64,000 bases of DNA from Bacilli bacterium (GTDB lineage: Bacteria > Bacillota_I > Bacilli_A > RFN20 > CAG-826), in the NCBI GenBank assembly GCA_036649855.1, contig JAVWAV010000003.1, positions 10,286-74,285 on the forward strand. The letters run 5' to 3'. The position numbers and the translations under genes were made by a program. Under the pieces are notes generated by a model, which did not search any database, was not told the origin of the DNA, and was given only the letters and a program-made list of their open reading frames with translations. Of this stretch, positions 25,910 to 57,130 are shown piece by piece (the first letter of the stretch is position 1; the number at the start of each line of letters is the position of its first letter).

Positions 25910-28900
25910 TTAATACCATTGTTGTGAATATCCTTTAACATAAGTTACAACACATCTTAAACAACCTGCCATACCTTCGTCTAAGGTATTTGTTTGGTCT
26001 ACACCTCTCTCACGACTCTGTTCTGTAATTCTTAATTTAGCAATATCATTTATTGTTTGCTTACATTCTTTAGATACTTTTATTTTTTTCTTAAATAATC
26101 CTGTCTTCATTATATTTATCGATACATCTCTATCTCTTTCATCATATTTTATAACATTGTAAACATTTGTTAATAACATTGATAATCTATTTTGTGGAGA
26201 AGTATCTAGTATTGTGTTTCCTGGTAAAACTTCATTTCTGCTGAATTCTTCGAATGCCTGTATTCCTCTGAATACTCTTTCTCCTACTACAATAAATTCA
26301 TCTGTAAAATTATCTTGCATTATTTCTGTTACTTTTATTATCTCTCCAGATACTGTTGCTCCATAAATTAAGAAATTAGTTTTATTTATTTCTTCACTGC
26401 TTATAATATTTTGAGAACTGAATGCACCTGTATATACTCCGAGTTGTCTCTGAGTGAAATGATATATAACTAATTGTGCAAAAGCATCTGTAATATCATC
26501 ATGAGCAATTAATGGAAATTTCTTTAATTGCTGAATTAAATACATAACTTTATCTGTTCTAGCAAATCTAACTAATCCTTTTTCCATATATACTGATGCT
26601 AATTCTAGTCTCTGCATTTTACTTCGTGTTCCTGGATTAAATGCTACAAGTCCTGCAACATCCTTCGCTAAGTCCTGTATTAATGCTGATCCATTCGCTT
26701 TGTCTTCTACTACTTGAATTATTGAAGGATCTATAATTTGCATTCTTGTAAATAATTCTTTTTCAGCAACATATCCCAAGTGTTCTTCAAATGCGTCTGT
26801 TATTACTAATTCATTATCTTTACTATATGCTTCTGTAAATCCATGATAATCTGATGTTTCTTTATCTTTTACAGGACAGTCATGAGATGCATAATGGAAC
26901 TCTGCTAATGCTGTAAATTCTTCTAATTCTTTATCTTCGATATAATGTATCATATTTTCTTTGATAACATTTAATCTACTCTCTCCTGGATTTTGGTTAT
27001 ACTGTGTTTCAAAATCTTCAGATCCAATTTCCATCTTTAACTGAGTATAATCTCCAAATCTTTCTGCCCATAGTAAATCACCTTTCTTAATTTGCTTAAC
27101 CATTCCAGAACATGGATAAATAAATGTTTGATCATGACTCGCTACTGCTTGTATTTCAGTGTGACTGTAAATTAGTCGAAGTCCTTTATCCTCTGCAATT
27201 AAATCAGAAATATCACCATTTCCAATTCTTTGCATAATATGCCAAATTACACCTGTTGTCTTATTATTAAGACGAGATGGCATTGTTGTTTTGTAATAAT
27301 CTCTTGCATGTAATAATACTGCTCCATCCATTCTTGCATCTGCTACTGATATCAAATCATCGTTAATAATAATATCAGAACCAAATCCTGTAAACTTATC
27401 CATAGCAACTGAGTATGTCTTACCACCATTTCTTAATTCAAGACAATCTGCTGTATTCTTAGATAATCCAAGATTAATCTCATTTCCAAAATAATATTTA
27501 TATTTTTCGCTATTGAATAATTTCTGTTTCTTTATAATCATTTCTCCAGACAAGTTCTTACTGTGAGAAACAGATGTAACTGTAACTGGAGTATTTATAA
27601 TAGTCCATGATGGTCCTAAAATATTCATTATTGTTGAATTATGTGTCTGAATTAATGTTCTACCTGCTAGATACATTCCTCCCTCTACAGTTATACAGTT
27701 TCCTTCTTCTGGAATATCTAATTTATTTATTGATGTGATAGATATTCTTCTCTGTTTTGAAAAAATATTTAATTGTTTTCTTGGTATTCTACATGGTATT
27801 TCAAATGTAGGATTAAACCCAATATAATAACCGTCCTTTTTTGATATAATACCGTCCGCTTTTTGAATAGTTATTGAGGTCTTCCAACCAAATGATGCAA
27901 TCAGTGTTAAGATATCATCTTTTAATCTCTCGGAAGTAGTTATGAAGAAGTACCTGTGCTCATCTTTAATTAGACTGCCATCTGTGTCTATAAGTCCTGC
28001 CAACAAATCAAGTCTTTGTTCTACAGATGCTGTTAAGTACTCTTGAGGTATATGTTTTGTATCTTTATCTTTTGGAAAGCATAGACTTAATTTTTGTAAG
28101 TCTAGTCTCATAATTTTATCGAACTCATATTGAATACTTTTTCCCCACCCGCAGTCGTTTATCCATTTATTATGTATTCTATAATGTTTCTCTACTTCAT
28201 TTATTACTTCCATATCATCTATTCCAGCAGTGATTAATTGATGATTTGTGTTCCCATCTCCCAGCCATGCTCCTAGAACATATGGATTTACAGGTAAGAC
28301 TTTATCTTCCCCTAAAACTGCTGTTCTATTCTCCAAATGAAATCTATAACCATTTCCTCGAACATTTCCCATTTTTGGACTTATTCTTAATTTATTAACA
28401 AGATACTCTGTTTCTACTGTTTTTACTTTATTTGCAAAATTATCATGAACTTTCCACAAATGCTTTGAATTGCACTTAATCGTCTCGCCATTGCTGAATA
28501 CGACCTCTAAATCAGCAACATCTTTAGGATGAACTTTTATAACTTTCACAAATCTTCCGCCATCAGAAATTACCTCATCTCCTACAACTAAATCTCCATG
28601 ATTCTTCCACCCATTTCTTGTCAGAATTGGTGTATTATTTGCTAGGAGTTTCATATGCCGTGGTGCGATGTTCAAGTCGTGGTTACGAGTATGTGTTCCA
28701 TCTGGCAATAAATGATCTCTTACATCACAGTGTCCACCTGATTCTTTTTGTATCTTTTCATATTCTTCATCACTTATCCATTCTCCCCAAATATATTGAG
28801 GTAGAAAATGTTTAATAGAATATTGATAACATTCACATAAATATTGTATCAACCAACAATCACTAAATGGACTGGTCTCATAAGAATCCCACATCTCTTT

Positions 28901-28969
28901 TACAAATTCATATAGATTCTTTTTAATTAACCATGTCTTTAATAATTTAATATTTACTATTGTTGACAT
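25910..28969 (-). CDS. terminase large subunit interrupted by an intein
   Basis: Exteins carry ..IAPRHMK|..|STIMN (Walker A region), IIINDDLIS (Walker B) and C-terminal HDDITDAF (nuclease). The 337-aa insert has intein and LAGLIDADG blocks. Confidence 0.85.
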   Translation of the reverse strand: MSTIVNIKLLKTWLIKKNLYEFVKEMWDSYETSPFSDCWLIQYLCECYQYSIKHFLPQYIWGEWISDEEYEKIQKESGGHCDVRDHLLPDGTHTRNHDLNIAPRHMKLLANNTPILTRNGWKNHGDLVVGDEVISDGGRFVKVIKVHPKDVADLEVVFSNGETIKCNSKHLWKVHDNFANKVKTVETEYLVNKLRISPKMGNVRGNGYRFHLENRTAVLGEDKVLPVNPYVLGAWLGDGNTNHQLITAGIDDMEVINEVEKHYRIHNKWINDCGWGKSIQYEFDKIMRLDLQKLSLCFPKDKDTKHIPQEYLTASVEQRLDLLAGLIDTDGSLIKDEHRYFFITTSERLKDDILTLIASFGWKTSITIQKADGIISKKDGYYIGFNPTFEIPCRIPRKQLNIFSKQRRISITSINKLDIPEEGNCITVEGGMYLAGRTLIQTHNSTIMNILGPSWTIINTPVTVTSVSHSKNLSGEMIIKKQKLFNSEKYKYYFGNEINLGLSKNTADCLELRNGGKTYSVAMDKFTGFGSDIIINDDLISVADARMDGAVLLHARDYYKTTMPSRLNNKTTGVIWHIMQRIGNGDISDLIAEDKGLRLIYSHTEIQAVASHDQTFIYPCSGMVKQIKKGDLLWAERFGDYTQLKMEIGSEDFETQYNQNPGESRLNVIKENMIHYIEDKELEEFTALAEFHYASHDCPVKDKETSDYHGFTEAYSKDNELVITDAFEEHLGYVAEKELFTRMQIIDPSIIQVVEDKANGSALIQDLAKDVAGLVAFNPGTRSKMQRLELASVYMEKGLVRFARTDKVMYLIQQLKKFPLIAHDDITDAFAQLVIYHFTQRQLGVYTGAFSSQNIISSEEINKTNFLIYGATVSGEIIKVTEIMQDNFTDEFIVVGERVFRGIQAFEEFSRNEVLPGNTILDTSPQNRLSMLLTNVYNVIKYDERDRDVSINIMKTGLFKKKIKVSKECKQTINDIAKLRITEQSRERGVDQTNTLDEGMAGCLRCVVTYVKGYSQQWY
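27638..28648 (-). mobile_element. intein with LAGLIDADG homing endonuclease domain (class-3-like WCT pattern)
   Basis: Two LAGLIDADG motifs are present: LGAWLGDGN and LLAGLIDTDGS. The element ends ..LIQTHN|S. There is no Cys/Ser at position 1, but SKHLW, NCITV and QTHN are present. The N-junction is approximate. Confidence 0.75.
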
Positions 28970-30847: not shown

Positions 30848-31204
30848 TGGTGGACATGACGAGAGTCGAACTCGTGTCCATATCATGAATTTATTAGAAT
30901 ATTTTGCTACTATAATCTTTTAGACCGTCCATTTATGATGTTTGAGTGGACATTTCTTATTTACCTCGTCTCATCATAATTCGTTTTTAACTCTTGAATT
31001 ATAGAGTCTCTGATTTCTCAGAATAGTGCTTTATTTTAATCCTCAAATACTAAGCAGCACATTGACTGTATTGTTTTGGAGCAAGAGCATTAATTATTCT
31101 TGCAAATATATTTTGTTTTGCATTTATATTTAGTTGTAGTCTATTCCTACTGTCATATAGAATTCTAATAATTTCAATTGAAATGTCGATACCATTTCAT
31201 GCCC
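30848..31204 (-). ncRNA. ssrA: transfer-messenger RNA (tmRNA)
   Basis: The 5' GGGCATG pairs with the 3' CATGTCC-A-CCA, including G3:U70. GGTATCGAC matches the tmRNA GGAUUCGAC box. The 3' end reads GGAC-ACGAG-TTCGACT-CTCGT. A ~13-bp P2-like helix joins GAAATTATTAGAAT and ATTCTAATAAATTC. An internal frame ends ..GCT GCT TAG. Confidence 0.75.
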
Positions 31205-31371
31205 ATAGATATATTCTTTTGCTGTCAGGTAAATATATTGAGCGAGCATTACGCAACCTGCTGGTATAGTGTGTCTCAGTGATTTGTTCAGGATCATAGA
31301 CTACAAAACACACTTATTAGTGTTAGGCAGTGTTTTGTATGATAGCGACACTACTCTACTATCAACACTAT

Positions 31372-31446
31372 TGGTGGAACGATAGAGATTCGAACTCTAA
31401 CTTCTTGGATGCAAACCAAGTGTGCTACCATTGACACCATCACCCC
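31372..31446 (-). tRNA. tRNA-Ala (anticodon UGC)
   Basis: Full cloverleaf with encoded CCA. Anticodon loop TTTGCAT, T-loop TTCGAAT. The acceptor stem has the G3:U70 Ala identity pair plus G4:U69 and U5:G68. Confidence 0.85.
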
Positions 31447-31680
31447 AAAATGCAAAGATGGTAGGAATTTAACCTCCTCAACCACTCCGAAAGTGCATCT
31501 TTGCATCCTGTTTCTTCTTGAAACATAGTCACCTAAGTTATATATCTTAGTATTCAAGTCCTGCGAACTAATCTCCACTGCCTGTTCCGTGGACGAACTG
31601 CTTACATTTTTCGACTCATGAGGTCGCTATTCAATAGAATTAAGCAGTCAAGTTGTTTTAAATCTACTTGCCAAAGACCA

Positions 31681-31755
31681 TGGTTGCGAGAGATGGATTT
31701 GAACCATCGATCTCTAGGTTATGAACCTAGCGAGATTCCACTTCTCTATCTCGCG
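31681..31755 (-). tRNA. tRNA-Met (anticodon CAU), initiator-like
   Basis: Full cloverleaf with encoded CCA. Anticodon loop TTCATAA. The C1:A72 mismatch is typical of bacterial initiator tRNA. Confidence 0.85.
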
Positions 31756-55066: not shown

Positions 55067-57130
55067 TTACTCTCTACTTAATAATAATAGTTCTGTTTCT
55101 ACTACTGGTAATACCGAACTCTCGTATTTTATTTTACTATTTAACTCATTTATCTTCTCAAGTAAATTCTTTAATACAGCATTATCAGAACCATTTGTTC
55201 TATTTAACTGTTCTGAATATATTTTTGGAATTGATATATAATCAAAGTTATTAAATAATTTATATTTACATAAATCTGATAGAAAATTAGTAAAACTCCT
55301 AATAAATAATTTTAAGTCTTTTCCTGCTTGATATAATTCTTCAATAATTTGAATTACTTTTTCTTCTTCACAGTTATATATTGCAAAGAATAAATTAAAT
55401 AATACATCATAATCTACACTTCCTAAAATCTTAACTGCGTCTTCTAATGTTACATTATGCTTTAGACTTAAACATTTATCTAACATAGATACTGCATCTC
55501 TCATTCCACCACTTGCTAATTTTGCAATATAATCAGAAACATCTGTTGGAACAGAAATATCTGGATTCAATTCTACTTCTTTATTAATAATATAATTTAT
55601 TCTATTGAATATTCCAGAATAGGATATTCTAGTTAAATCAAATCTCTGAACTCTATTAATTATAGTTGCAGGAATCTTTTGTGGATCTGTTGTGCAAAAT
55701 ATGAATATTGACTTTGCAGGTGGTTCTTCTAATGTTTTTAACATTGCATTCCAAGCATTAATACTCAGCATATGACAATTATGAACTAAGATATTATTAG
55801 CAAAATATGAGTTATGTCCCTCAACTTCTAAATCGTATAAGTAAGTAAATCCTTCTCTACTGTCTGTATCTGAGATATAACTTGAGAACAATTCATCATT
55901 ATATCCTCGTTTGTAAATCTCAACACTGTCCACCCTATACTCTTCAAAAATTCCGTCTTCTTTGTATCCTGCTGCAAACGATCTCTCAATTTGTGGGAAG
56001 CACCATCCACCTCTATCGCCAACTTTATCTCTCTCCATCCTAGGTCTACTTTGTAATTGGTAGGATACCCCGAGTCTCTGCTCATTTTCGTTGGTATTGC
56101 TAACTCTAATTCGTATTTCTGGTTCAACATCTTCCAAAGAGTTAACTGAGGTTTTGTATAACTCCCATTTCCACCTCTCACTGTAAAATAATGATTCCCA
56201 TTCTCCTTCCGAGTATTCTTCATTTTTTCCATTGTTTCTAGGTTGCTCATTGGATTCTTTAATTTCATTCGTTCTGATGTTTTCTTCCAAAAATCTCTCA
56301 TTTTCTGCGATGGTTCTCTCGTCCTTGATAATTCCAAACTTTGATTTCTCAATAATTGAGCGCATTCCTTTGAACAAGTCTGAACTGAAGAACTTATAGT
56401 AGTCTGGAATTCCTTTCCACAAATTTTGCAATTCTTCATCAATCTTCTCTTCATAGCATTTCTTGCTAATCTGATCTTTGCACATTCCTTTGAGCAACAT
56501 CTCTTTCCTGTGAACCAATAAAACACTTTTCCACAGTTTGTGCATATATTCTTTACTGTATACTTTTTCTCCATTTCTTAAATGTTGAGCCTCAACCCAA
56601 CCCTCCTCTGTAAAATATAACTCATCTACAGTAGTCAGAGTTGCCTTTCCATTAATTGTAACAATGCACAGTCTGGATATATCTACCTTGTTCTTAAAAG
56701 TATTATTTACTCTGCCTAATCCACACAGATTTTCAACATAGTCTCCCACTTTGATTTCAGATATTTTTTTATATCCCTTATCTGTTGATATTAGAGTATC
56801 TTTATGAAAACATTCATCTACAATGAATACCTTATACTCTGCTTCAATTGACTGATAATTTGCTTTATCTATGATTGATCTCATATCTTCAACACCATTA
56901 TTTGATGCTGCATCCAATTCTGTTAATCCACCCTCACCATGATTTATTTCCTTCGTTAGAATTCTTCCTAGTGTCGTCTTTCCTGTTCCACTAGGACCAA
57001 CAAATAAATAACAATTTCTTATAGTGTTTGTTGCAATTTGATTTTTTAGTATTTCTACAACTTCCTTCTGCTCACTAACATCCTCAAATGAATGTGGTCT
57101 ATATTTTGTATATAATGGAATTACTGCCAT
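55067..57130 (-). CDS. dnaX: DNA polymerase III gamma/tau-like clamp loader ATPase interrupted by a 345-aa intein
   Basis: YRPHSFEDV..LFVGPSGTGKTT..VFIVDE|CFHKDTLIST ... NNILVHN|CHMLSINAWNAMLKTLEEPP. Confidence 0.85.
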   Translation of the reverse strand: MAVIPLYTKYRPHSFEDVSEQKEVVEILKNQIATNTIRNCYLFVGPSGTGKTTLGRILTKEINHGEGGLTELDAASNNGVEDMRSIIDKANYQSIEAEYKVFIVDECFHKDTLISTDKGYKKISEIKVGDYVENLCGLGRVNNTFKNKVDISRLCIVTINGKATLTTVDELYFTEEGWVEAQHLRNGEKVYSKEYMHKLWKSVLLVHRKEMLLKGMCKDQISKKCYEEKIDEELQNLWKGIPDYYKFFSSDLFKGMRSIIEKSKFGIIKDERTIAENERFLEENIRTNEIKESNEQPRNNGKNEEYSEGEWESLFYSERWKWELYKTSVNSLEDVEPEIRIRVSNTNENEQRLGVSYQLQSRPRMERDKVGDRGGWCFPQIERSFAAGYKEDGIFEEYRVDSVEIYKRGYNDELFSSYISDTDSREGFTYLYDLEVEGHNSYFANNILVHNCHMLSINAWNAMLKTLEEPPAKSIFIFCTTDPQKIPATIINRVQRFDLTRISYSGIFNRINYIINKEVELNPDISVPTDVSDYIAKLASGGMRDAVSMLDKCLSLKHNVTLEDAVKILGSVDYDVLFNLFFAIYNCEEEKVIQIIEELYQAGKDLKLFIRSFTNFLSDLCKYKLFNNFDYISIPKIYSEQLNRTNGSDNAVLKNLLEKINELNSKIKYESSVLPVVETELLLLSRE
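55778..56812 (-). mobile_element. intein in the DnaX Walker B/sensor region
   Basis: Starts with Cys after IVDE and ends with HN before Cys+1. The splicing blocks occupy only the first ~85 and last ~26 aa; the interior is E/K/R-rich. Confidence 0.8.
55828..56574 (-). CDS. Vsr/DUF559-like homing endonuclease ORF nested out of frame inside the DnaX intein
   Basis: Two zinc-ribbon units are present (CTNCGKVF..CSKECA; CKICGKEF..CSKECA). The C-terminal YKVDLGWREIKLAIEVDGASHK...LKSIGWTVLRFTNEDI is the DUF559/Vsr-type signature. Confidence 0.7.
   Translation of the reverse strand: MEKKYTVKNICTNCGKVFYWFTGKRCCSKECAKIRLARNAMKRRLMKNCKICGKEFQTTISSSVQTCSKECAQLLRNQSLELSRTREPSQKMRDFWKKTSERMKLKNPMSNLETMEKMKNTRKENGNHYFTVRGGNGSYTKPQLTLWKMLNQKYELELAIPTKMSRDSGYPTNYKVDLGWREIKLAIEVDGASHKLRDRLQQDTKKTEFLKSIGWTVLRFTNEDIMMNCSQVISQIQTVEKDLLTYTI

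Follow-up and report, generated by a model that had tools for sequence, protein, structure and literature searches.

A probable class 3 intein with a LAGLIDADG homing endonuclease in the Walker A motif of a terminase large subunit from a phage

We analyzed a 64,000-nucleotide stretch of DNA (the window) in which the gene for a phage terminase large subunit (TerL) is interrupted by an in-frame insert of 337 amino acids. Its sequence motifs and a structure model indicate that this insert is very probably a full-length intein of class 3 that includes a LAGLIDADG homing endonuclease and is predicted to be active. It belongs to a known, large, and previously described type of class 3 intein that occupies the P-loop of terminases. 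The window intein and the family around it leave the understanding of the class 3 mechanism unchanged, and they widen the range of the class beyond actinobacteria and their phages, where these inteins have mostly been studied.

The terminase gene and the boundaries of the insert

The TerL precursor is encoded by an open reading frame at positions 25910-28969 on the minus strand of the window. Its translation is 1019 aa long and consists of an N-extein, the intein, and a C-extein. The protein matches the PHROG family phrog_38, terminase large subunit (E 1e-47), and has weak matches to TIGR01630 and Terminase_6C at residues 713-833 of the precursor. Several other TerL PHROGs also match across the insert because those families contain inteins too. 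The phage genome has a GC content of about 30% with its genes on one strand, and downstream of terL are a sheath-like gene and genes predicted to encode a portal, a head protease, and a major head protein. These head gene neighbors, the PHROG 38 match, and the structural matches described below to the TerL proteins T4 gp17, Sf6 gp2, and D6E identify the host protein as TerL, a type of protein with a P-loop ATPase at its N-terminus and an RNase H-like nuclease at its C-terminus. The phage is considered uncultured because a tblastn search of GenBank phages found no record with more than 60% identity.

Many close homologues of this TerL turned up when 5.8 billion proteins were searched. Three of these (P0005-P0007) have no intein, are 683 aa long, have exteins that are 79-80% identical to those of the window protein, and read IAPRHMK↓S(S/T)IMN, where the arrow marks the junction. 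When they are aligned with the window protein, the only gap corresponds exactly to residues 108-444. The insertion point is therefore between Lys107 (Lys-1) and Ser445 (Ser+1), the Lys and Ser of Walker A. Since the intein-less homologues leave exactly K↓S, the boundary is fixed and residue 1 is Leu. By the same alignment the N-extein (aa 1-107; 28649-28969, minus strand) ends in a deviant Walker A, ...NIAPRHMK, and the C-extein (aa 445-1019; 25910-27637, minus strand) starts with STIMN and contains the remaining ATPase domain and the nuclease domain. The deviant Walker A (PRH-M/C/T-K-S) is found throughout the TerL clade of the window, whether the intein is present or absent. The original prediction, made from the DNA alone, had placed a 337-aa insert at 27638-28648 between IAPRHMK and STIMN, in the region of Walker A and with Leu where Cys or Ser is expected at position 1. 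Translation and the intein-less homologues bear out this placement, narrow it to the bond between the Walker A Lys and Ser, and, through the K↓S junction, establish Leu1.

Most inteins are class 1, and this prior expectation would favor reading the insert as a class 1 intein that starts at a nearby Cys, Ser, or Thr, with Leu1 being an artefact of alignment. The probability of this is negligible. It is refuted by the intein-less homologues, in which everything between K107 and S445, and nothing else, is missing, and position 1 and its neighbors (KLLANN) include no Cys, Ser, or Thr. Sliding the boundary to bring one of these residues to position 1 is ruled out by the exact K↓S in the intein-less alleles. 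In the wider family described below, the residues at position 1 are L, Q, A, E, K, N, and M.

The insert, class 3 by the evidence below, runs from Leu1 to Asn337 (27638-28648, minus strand) and is predicted to form a HINT splicing domain that is split by a LAGLIDADG homing endonuclease. Its translation reads LLANNTPILTRNGW...GNCITVEGGMYLAGRTLIQTHN, ends in LIQTHN, and is flanked by ...NIAPRHMK and STIMN.... All of the motifs that follow are on the minus strand. Block A (LLANNTPILTRNG; 28610-28648) has Leu at position 1, and thus no nucleophile, and aligns to ALALYTPLPTPTGW of the solved intein 6rix. Block B (GETIKCNSKHLWKV; 28448-28489), with the stretch CNSKHLW, contains His63 (B:10) and Trp65 (B:12, the W of the WCT triplet) and aligns to AAHQW of 6rix. 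Block F (EGNCITVEGGMYLAG; 27662-27706) reads GNCITVEGG and pairs with RCVEVD of 6rix and 6bs8; its Cys318 (F:4, codon 27695-27697) is predicted to be the nucleophile that initiates splicing. Block G (TLIQTHN↓S; 27635-27658) contains Thr335 (G:5), His336, and Asn337 and is followed by Ser+1 of the C-extein. An intein is thus indicated by a precise in-frame insert of 337 aa, blocks that align to solved inteins, a terminal Asn, and Ser at +1.

The putative endonuclease domain lies between blocks B and F. Its first LAGLIDADG motif (PYVLGAWLGDGN; 28250-28285) includes YVLGAWLGDGN at intein residues 123-133 and its second (LDLLAGLIDTDGS; 27974-28012) includes LLAGLIDTDGS at residues 215-225. The two acidic residues predicted to be catalytic, Asp131 and Asp223, are both present, and Asp is conserved at these positions in 221 and 224 of 225 family members, respectively. 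At the second motif there are matches to Pfam LAGLIDADG_3 (29.9 bits, cut-off 22.5) and Hom_end (22.3 bits). The original prediction had named both motifs, and a putative two-motif LAGLIDADG endonuclease is what the sequence encodes.

An AlphaFold2 model of the whole precursor, based on an alignment of 108 sequences, had a mean pLDDT of 85, with the residues at the splice junctions modeled at low confidence (pLDDT <50). Foldseek matched the insert of this model to the full-length LAGLIDADG inteins PI-SceI, TliVMA, PhoVMA, and PI-PfuI and to MchDnaB-1, and matched the exteins to T4 gp17, Sf6 gp2, D6E, and other terminases. The modeled fold of the insert is thus HINT plus LAGLIDADG and that of the exteins is terminase.

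Assignment of the intein to class 3

Class 3 inteins are reported to be monophyletic, and their +1 residue is Ser or Thr, rarely Cys. Tori et al. (2010) defined the class by a non-nucleophilic residue 1, Trp at B:12, Cys at F:4, Thr at G:5, and Ser or Thr at +1, with the block F Cys being required (PMC2807308). The window intein has all five of these sequence features in Leu1, Trp65, Cys318, Thr335, and Ser+1. The original prediction of a class 3 pattern, which pointed to the Trp of SKHLW in block B, the Cys of NCITV in block F, and the Thr of QTHN in block G, is upheld by this comparison; all three residues are in the sequence, they are invariant or nearly so in 225 relatives, and the closest solved inteins are the class 3 DnaB-1 inteins.

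This last result came from two kinds of comparison with sequences in the PDB. When the single intein was used as a phmmer query, the class 3 DnaB-1 inteins 6rix, 6riy, and 6bs8 ranked first, and the alignments paired HLW with HQW, NCITVE with RCVEVD, and IQTHN with VPTHN. A splicing-domain profile made from intein residues 1-100 and 300-337 of 25 family members matched the same three entries from end to end with E values of 4e-30 to 4e-29. For the engineered gp41-1_WCT the E value was 2e-15. The natural class 1 intein with the best score was wild-type gp41-1, which the profile matched over the N-terminal part only with an E value of 1e-11. No PDB intein beyond the DnaB-1 and gp41-1 entries passed 0.01. 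Judged by profile score, the sequence is therefore nearer to class 3 than to class 1 inteins. A profile alignment had been proposed as a check for a Cys or Ser at position 1; the profile matched the class 3 DnaB-1 inteins from end to end, and the K↓S junction of the intein-less alleles fixes residue 1 as Leu.

The intein-splicing models of Pfam and NCBIfam gave no match to the insert. The Pfam model Intein_splicing (PF14890) does match class 1 inteins within this phage group, one in a clamp-loader gene of the window phage and one in a 98%-identical relative (P0003), so the lack of a match is not evidence against an intein; these models appear to be biased towards class 1. The clamp-loader intein, which offers a contrast within one phage, has Cys1, Asp at F:4, and HN↓Cys+1. 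Having the WCT triplet is in itself no guarantee of activity, because a class 1 intein did not splice when WCT was grafted onto it (PMC7664689).

The intein family and characterized relatives

We used the intein as the query in an exhaustive HMMER search of 1.84 billion representative sequences and recovered 508 proteins at E <= 1e-30. Among metagenomic phages, the class 3 P-loop family thus has a very large membership in terminases and primase-helicases. Family members are inserted at GK↓S or GK↓T in terminases (Terminase_6N) and in Toprim-AAA and DnaG-DnaB primase-helicases. Column counts come from an alignment of 225 full-length intein matches. All 225 have Cys F:4, Thr G:5, His G:6, Asn G:7, and the block B His, and 224 have Trp B:12. 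Conservation of this degree indicates that the motif set is not due to chance. The flanks are also conserved, with Gly at -2 in 204 members, Lys at -1 in 216, and Ser (204) or Thr (19) at +1; the window intein has Met at -2. In the lineage of the window three positions are off consensus: B:7 has Asn where the family has His, B:11 has Leu in place of Glu, and G:4 has Gln in place of Pro.

The novelty attached to Leu1 in the original prediction was overrated. Position 1 in the 225 members is most often Leu (126), followed by Gln (28), Ala (27), Glu (20), Lys (8), Asn (6), and Met (4), and Cys, Ser, or Thr occurs in at most two, with no more than one Cys and one Ser. The order is similar among 134 representatives that are less than 50% identical to each other, with Leu in 59, Gln in 24, Ala in 20, Glu in 12, Lys in 7, Met in 4, and a single Cys and a single Ser. 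Leu1 is thus the norm of this family rather than an oddity, and class 3 TerL inteins have already been described.

The nearest solved relatives are the DnaB-1 (DnaBi1) mini-inteins of M. chimaera (6rix, 6riy) and M. smegmatis (6bs8). They occupy the same type of P-loop site, GK↓S, which in DnaB-1 reads GVGK↓A...THN↓STLG. Like the TerL intein, they have a first residue that is not a nucleophile, the WCT triplet, the His of block B, and a C-terminus that reads THN↓S. Trp65 aligns to Trp67 of DnaB-1, and the catalytic cysteines that pair with Cys318 are Cys124 in MchDnaB1 and Cys118 in Msm DnaBi1. The Foldseek superposition on MchDnaB-1 has an rmsd of 2.3 A and 31% identity over 78 alignment columns, which cover the N-terminal part of HINT. 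By contrast, DnaB-1 is hosted by a replicative helicase and the TerL intein by a terminase, the first residue is Ala in DnaB-1 and Leu here, B:7 is Asp in DnaB-1 and Asn here, and DnaB-1 has a linker where the TerL intein has the LAGLIDADG endonuclease. DnaB-1 inteins splice via the block F Cys through two successive branched intermediates (PMC7664689, PMC5222942, PMC6195587).

These comparisons bear on another way to explain an intein with no nucleophile at position 1, a state that is shared with class 2 inteins. Ser+1 might attack the amide at the N-terminal junction directly, with Cys318 having a structural or assisting role only. We consider this highly improbable. The class 2 (KlbA) inteins are without the WCT triplet and use Cys+1 (PMC2807308), whereas all 225 homologues keep W, C, and T, with a single exception for W. 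Direct attack of a Ser hydroxyl on an amide is also chemically unfavorable, and the nearest solved relatives are class 3 by experiment (PMC5222942).

Class 3 inteins are also known from phages. The class 3 prototype, the mycobacteriophage Bethlehem DnaB intein (PMC2807308), was compared by description. It is phage-borne and full-length (341 aa versus 337 here), and like the TerL intein it is described with the WCT triplet, Thr or Ser at +1, a block F Cys as obligate nucleophile, and an ATPase as host protein. It differs in having Pro1, Thr+1, and an actinobacteriophage helicase as host. In 2010, class 3 inteins were already noted in proteins of helicase type, among them the large subunits of phage terminases, and mostly at the P-loop (PMC2807308). 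In surveys of actinobacteriophages, class 3 LAGLIDADG inteins have since been counted in the hundreds, most of them residing in TerL and Cas4-like nucleases (PMC5050341; bioRxiv 10.1101/2025.01.02.630785), and for several actinophage TerL inteins both splicing and cleavage of intein-less alleles were demonstrated (Kelley et al. 2016, PMC5050341; Gosselin et al. 2025, bioRxiv 10.1101/2025.01.02.630785). These have the same host protein, insertion in the ATPase domain, and LAGLIDADG endonucleases as the window intein. The TerL1-a P-loop site of actinophages (Lys↓Thr) is likened to ours by insertion site. The actinophage TerL proteins belong to Terminase_1 or Terminase_6 and have another host range, whereas the window TerL is from a low-GC phage and is nearest to PHROG 38.

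Two cultured phages have inteins of the same family at the same site. The TerL of Bacteroides phage B124-14 (YP_005102508) reads PPQTGK↓ELSD...HEW...GNCIQVEGG...PTHN↓SEGS and that of Porphyromonas phage phage005b (XAW31795) reads PPQHGK↓QISD...HEW...GNCIQVEGG...PTHN↓SEGS. They differ from the window intein in starting with Glu1 and Gln1, respectively, rather than Leu1, in having a canonical GK Walker A rather than MK, and in being about 30% identical over the aligned stretch. Both records annotate the protein as 'terminase large subunit' only, leaving the intein unannotated.

Predicted splicing, selection, and homing

From sequence we predict that the precursor splices, that Cys318 has a role in this, that the endonuclease is active, and that packaging depends on splicing. 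By the class 3 mechanism, Cys318 (F:4) would attack the Lys-1/Leu1 (Lys107-Leu108) peptide bond, assisted by His63 and Trp65 of block B and Thr335 of block G, to give a thioester-linked branched intermediate at block F. The N-extein would then move to Ser+1 (Ser445), forming a block-G branched intermediate, and cyclization of Asn337 (Asn444 of the precursor) would free the intein. An O-to-N shift would leave a peptide bond in a TerL of 682 aa that reads ...APRHMK-STIMN.... Residues B:7, B:11, and G:4, which are off consensus in this lineage, may affect the rate of splicing; B:7 was dispensable in the Bethlehem DnaB intein (PMC2807308). A 38-kDa insert interrupts the P-loop of the unspliced protein, which should leave the ATPase, and hence packaging, inactive. 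A need for splicing in packaging would thus follow from the insertion site.

The gene is best annotated as encoding an intein-containing TerL precursor with a mature protein of 682 aa and the junction ...APRHMK↓STIMN.... For trees or clustering of TerL from this phage group the spliced sequence should be used, because otherwise alleles with and without the intein are split artificially.

A Cys redox switch has been demonstrated in M. smegmatis DnaBi1. By analogy, splicing of the TerL intein could be conditional, with Cys318 as a redox switch and Cys59 of block B, a residue shared by 171 of the 225 family members, as a possible partner. We regard this as unlikely. If it were true, the maturation of TerL and the timing of packaging would follow the redox state of an anaerobic gut or rumen host rather than being constitutive. 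A weaker form of this reading would be that P-loop inteins of the Leu1 type are a large, unannotated branch of class 3 in gut and rumen phages that was missed by surveys centered on actinobacteria.

It is also conceivable that the intein is decaying or dead for splicing, so that TerL is non-functional or needs help, for instance from a co-infecting phage, and the contig represents a defective phage. The off-consensus residues at B:7, B:11, and G:4 are compatible with this, and Arsp-FB24 Arth_1007 is a known example of a class 3-like intein pseudogene that is inactive (PMC3196547). We nonetheless judge it very unlikely. The Arth_1007 pseudogene is without Cys F:4, whereas the catalytic residues of the window intein are all intact, and the terL reading frame is unbroken within a complete head and packaging module. 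The P0004 allele, with an intein that is 53% identical and exteins that are 73% identical to those of the window, has the same off-consensus residues, which points to an old, maintained state. Comparison with P0004 gave dN/dS values of 0.26 for the intein, 0.13 for the exteins, and about 0.32 for the endonuclease segment, all of which are rough because dS is near saturation. These values indicate that the intein, endonuclease included, is under purifying selection, which also argues against decay.

An active intein with a functional endonuclease would be expected to spread by homing, in which the endonuclease would cut intein-less TerL alleles in a co-infection and the intein would be copied in. 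The window's own 0.95-Mb assembly contains no second copy of the TerL intein. Presence of the intein is patchy among near-identical terminases. The P0004 extein is 96% identical to that of the intein-less P0009, and the window extein is 80% identical to that of the intein-less P0005. At locus L004 the empty site reads ...CATATGAAA↓TCTTCAATAATGAAT... (also given as ...CCACGACATATGAAA↓TCTTCAATAATGAAT...), nearly identical to the occupied flanks. The selection on the intein, its intact motifs, and its patchy presence are consistent with an active homing and splicing element. The relative P0003 has the same TerL intein with 7 differences over 1011 nt, of which 4 are synonymous and 3 nonsynonymous, together with a second intein, of class 1, at Walker B.

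The TerL Walker A motif and Cys59 of the P-loop intein

The class 3 intein of the terminase large subunit (TerL) interrupts a Walker A motif that is deviant throughout the TerL clade (TerL residues 101-107, window 28649-28669, minus strand). The residue preceding the Walker A lysine in this clade is methionine, cysteine or threonine rather than the usual glycine, giving PRHMKS, PRHCKS or PRHTKS, and the members of the clade that have no intein share this deviation. By contrast, most other hosts of the class 3 intein family have GK.

Within the intein, Cys59 (window 28472-28474, minus strand) occupies block B position 6, four residues N-terminal to the catalytic histidine. This cysteine is kept in 171 of the 225 full-length homologues in the intein family, whereas the mycobacterial DnaB-1 inteins, the closest solved relatives, have no cysteine at this position. 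Cys59 could be a redox-switch partner of the catalytic cysteine, predicted to be Cys318.

Inteins in related terminases

Homologous class 3-type P-loop inteins were found in the TerL proteins of two cultured phages, Bacteroides phage B124-14 (L005, NC_016770.1), where the first residue is Glu1, and Porphyromonas phage phage005b (L006, PP754928.1), where it is Gln1. Neither intein is annotated in the GenBank TerL records. A TerL from a different sample, P0003 (locus L002, 3001-7155), is 98% identical to the TerL of the window and contains the same class 3 P-loop intein together with a class 1 intein at Walker B (FTGFGSD/CFVAK...LVHN/CIINDD). The alignment of TerL homologues showed that P0017, P0019, P0020 and P0027 have the Walker B intein alone, in either a full-length or a mini form.

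The class 1 intein of the clamp-loader gene

The phage in the window encodes a second intein of 345 aa (window 55778-56812, minus strand) within an ORF at 55067-57130. It is located after the Walker B sequence VFIVDE of a DnaX/gp44-like clamp loader and has the features of class 1, with Cys1, Asp at block F:4, and VHN followed by Cys+1. Pfam Intein_splicing matched this intein with 34 bits; its central region of approximately 200 aa gave no match to LAGLIDADG or HNH.

Assembly and neighboring RNA genes

The assembly (G000) comprises 952,644 bp in 51 contigs and has a completeness score of 92.8% despite its small size. The 64-kb window (C3:10286-74285) makes up the greater part of an 83-kb contig of this assembly; virtually all of its sizeable ORFs are on the same strand, and its genes are phage-like. 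The contig may be from a phage that was binned with a small-genome organism, or from a phage of that organism. Immediately upstream of the terminase region, ARAGORN called tmRNA, tRNA-Ala and tRNA-Met genes (window 30848-31755, minus strand), and the tag encoded by the tmRNA is AKQNIFARIINALAPKQYSQCAA.
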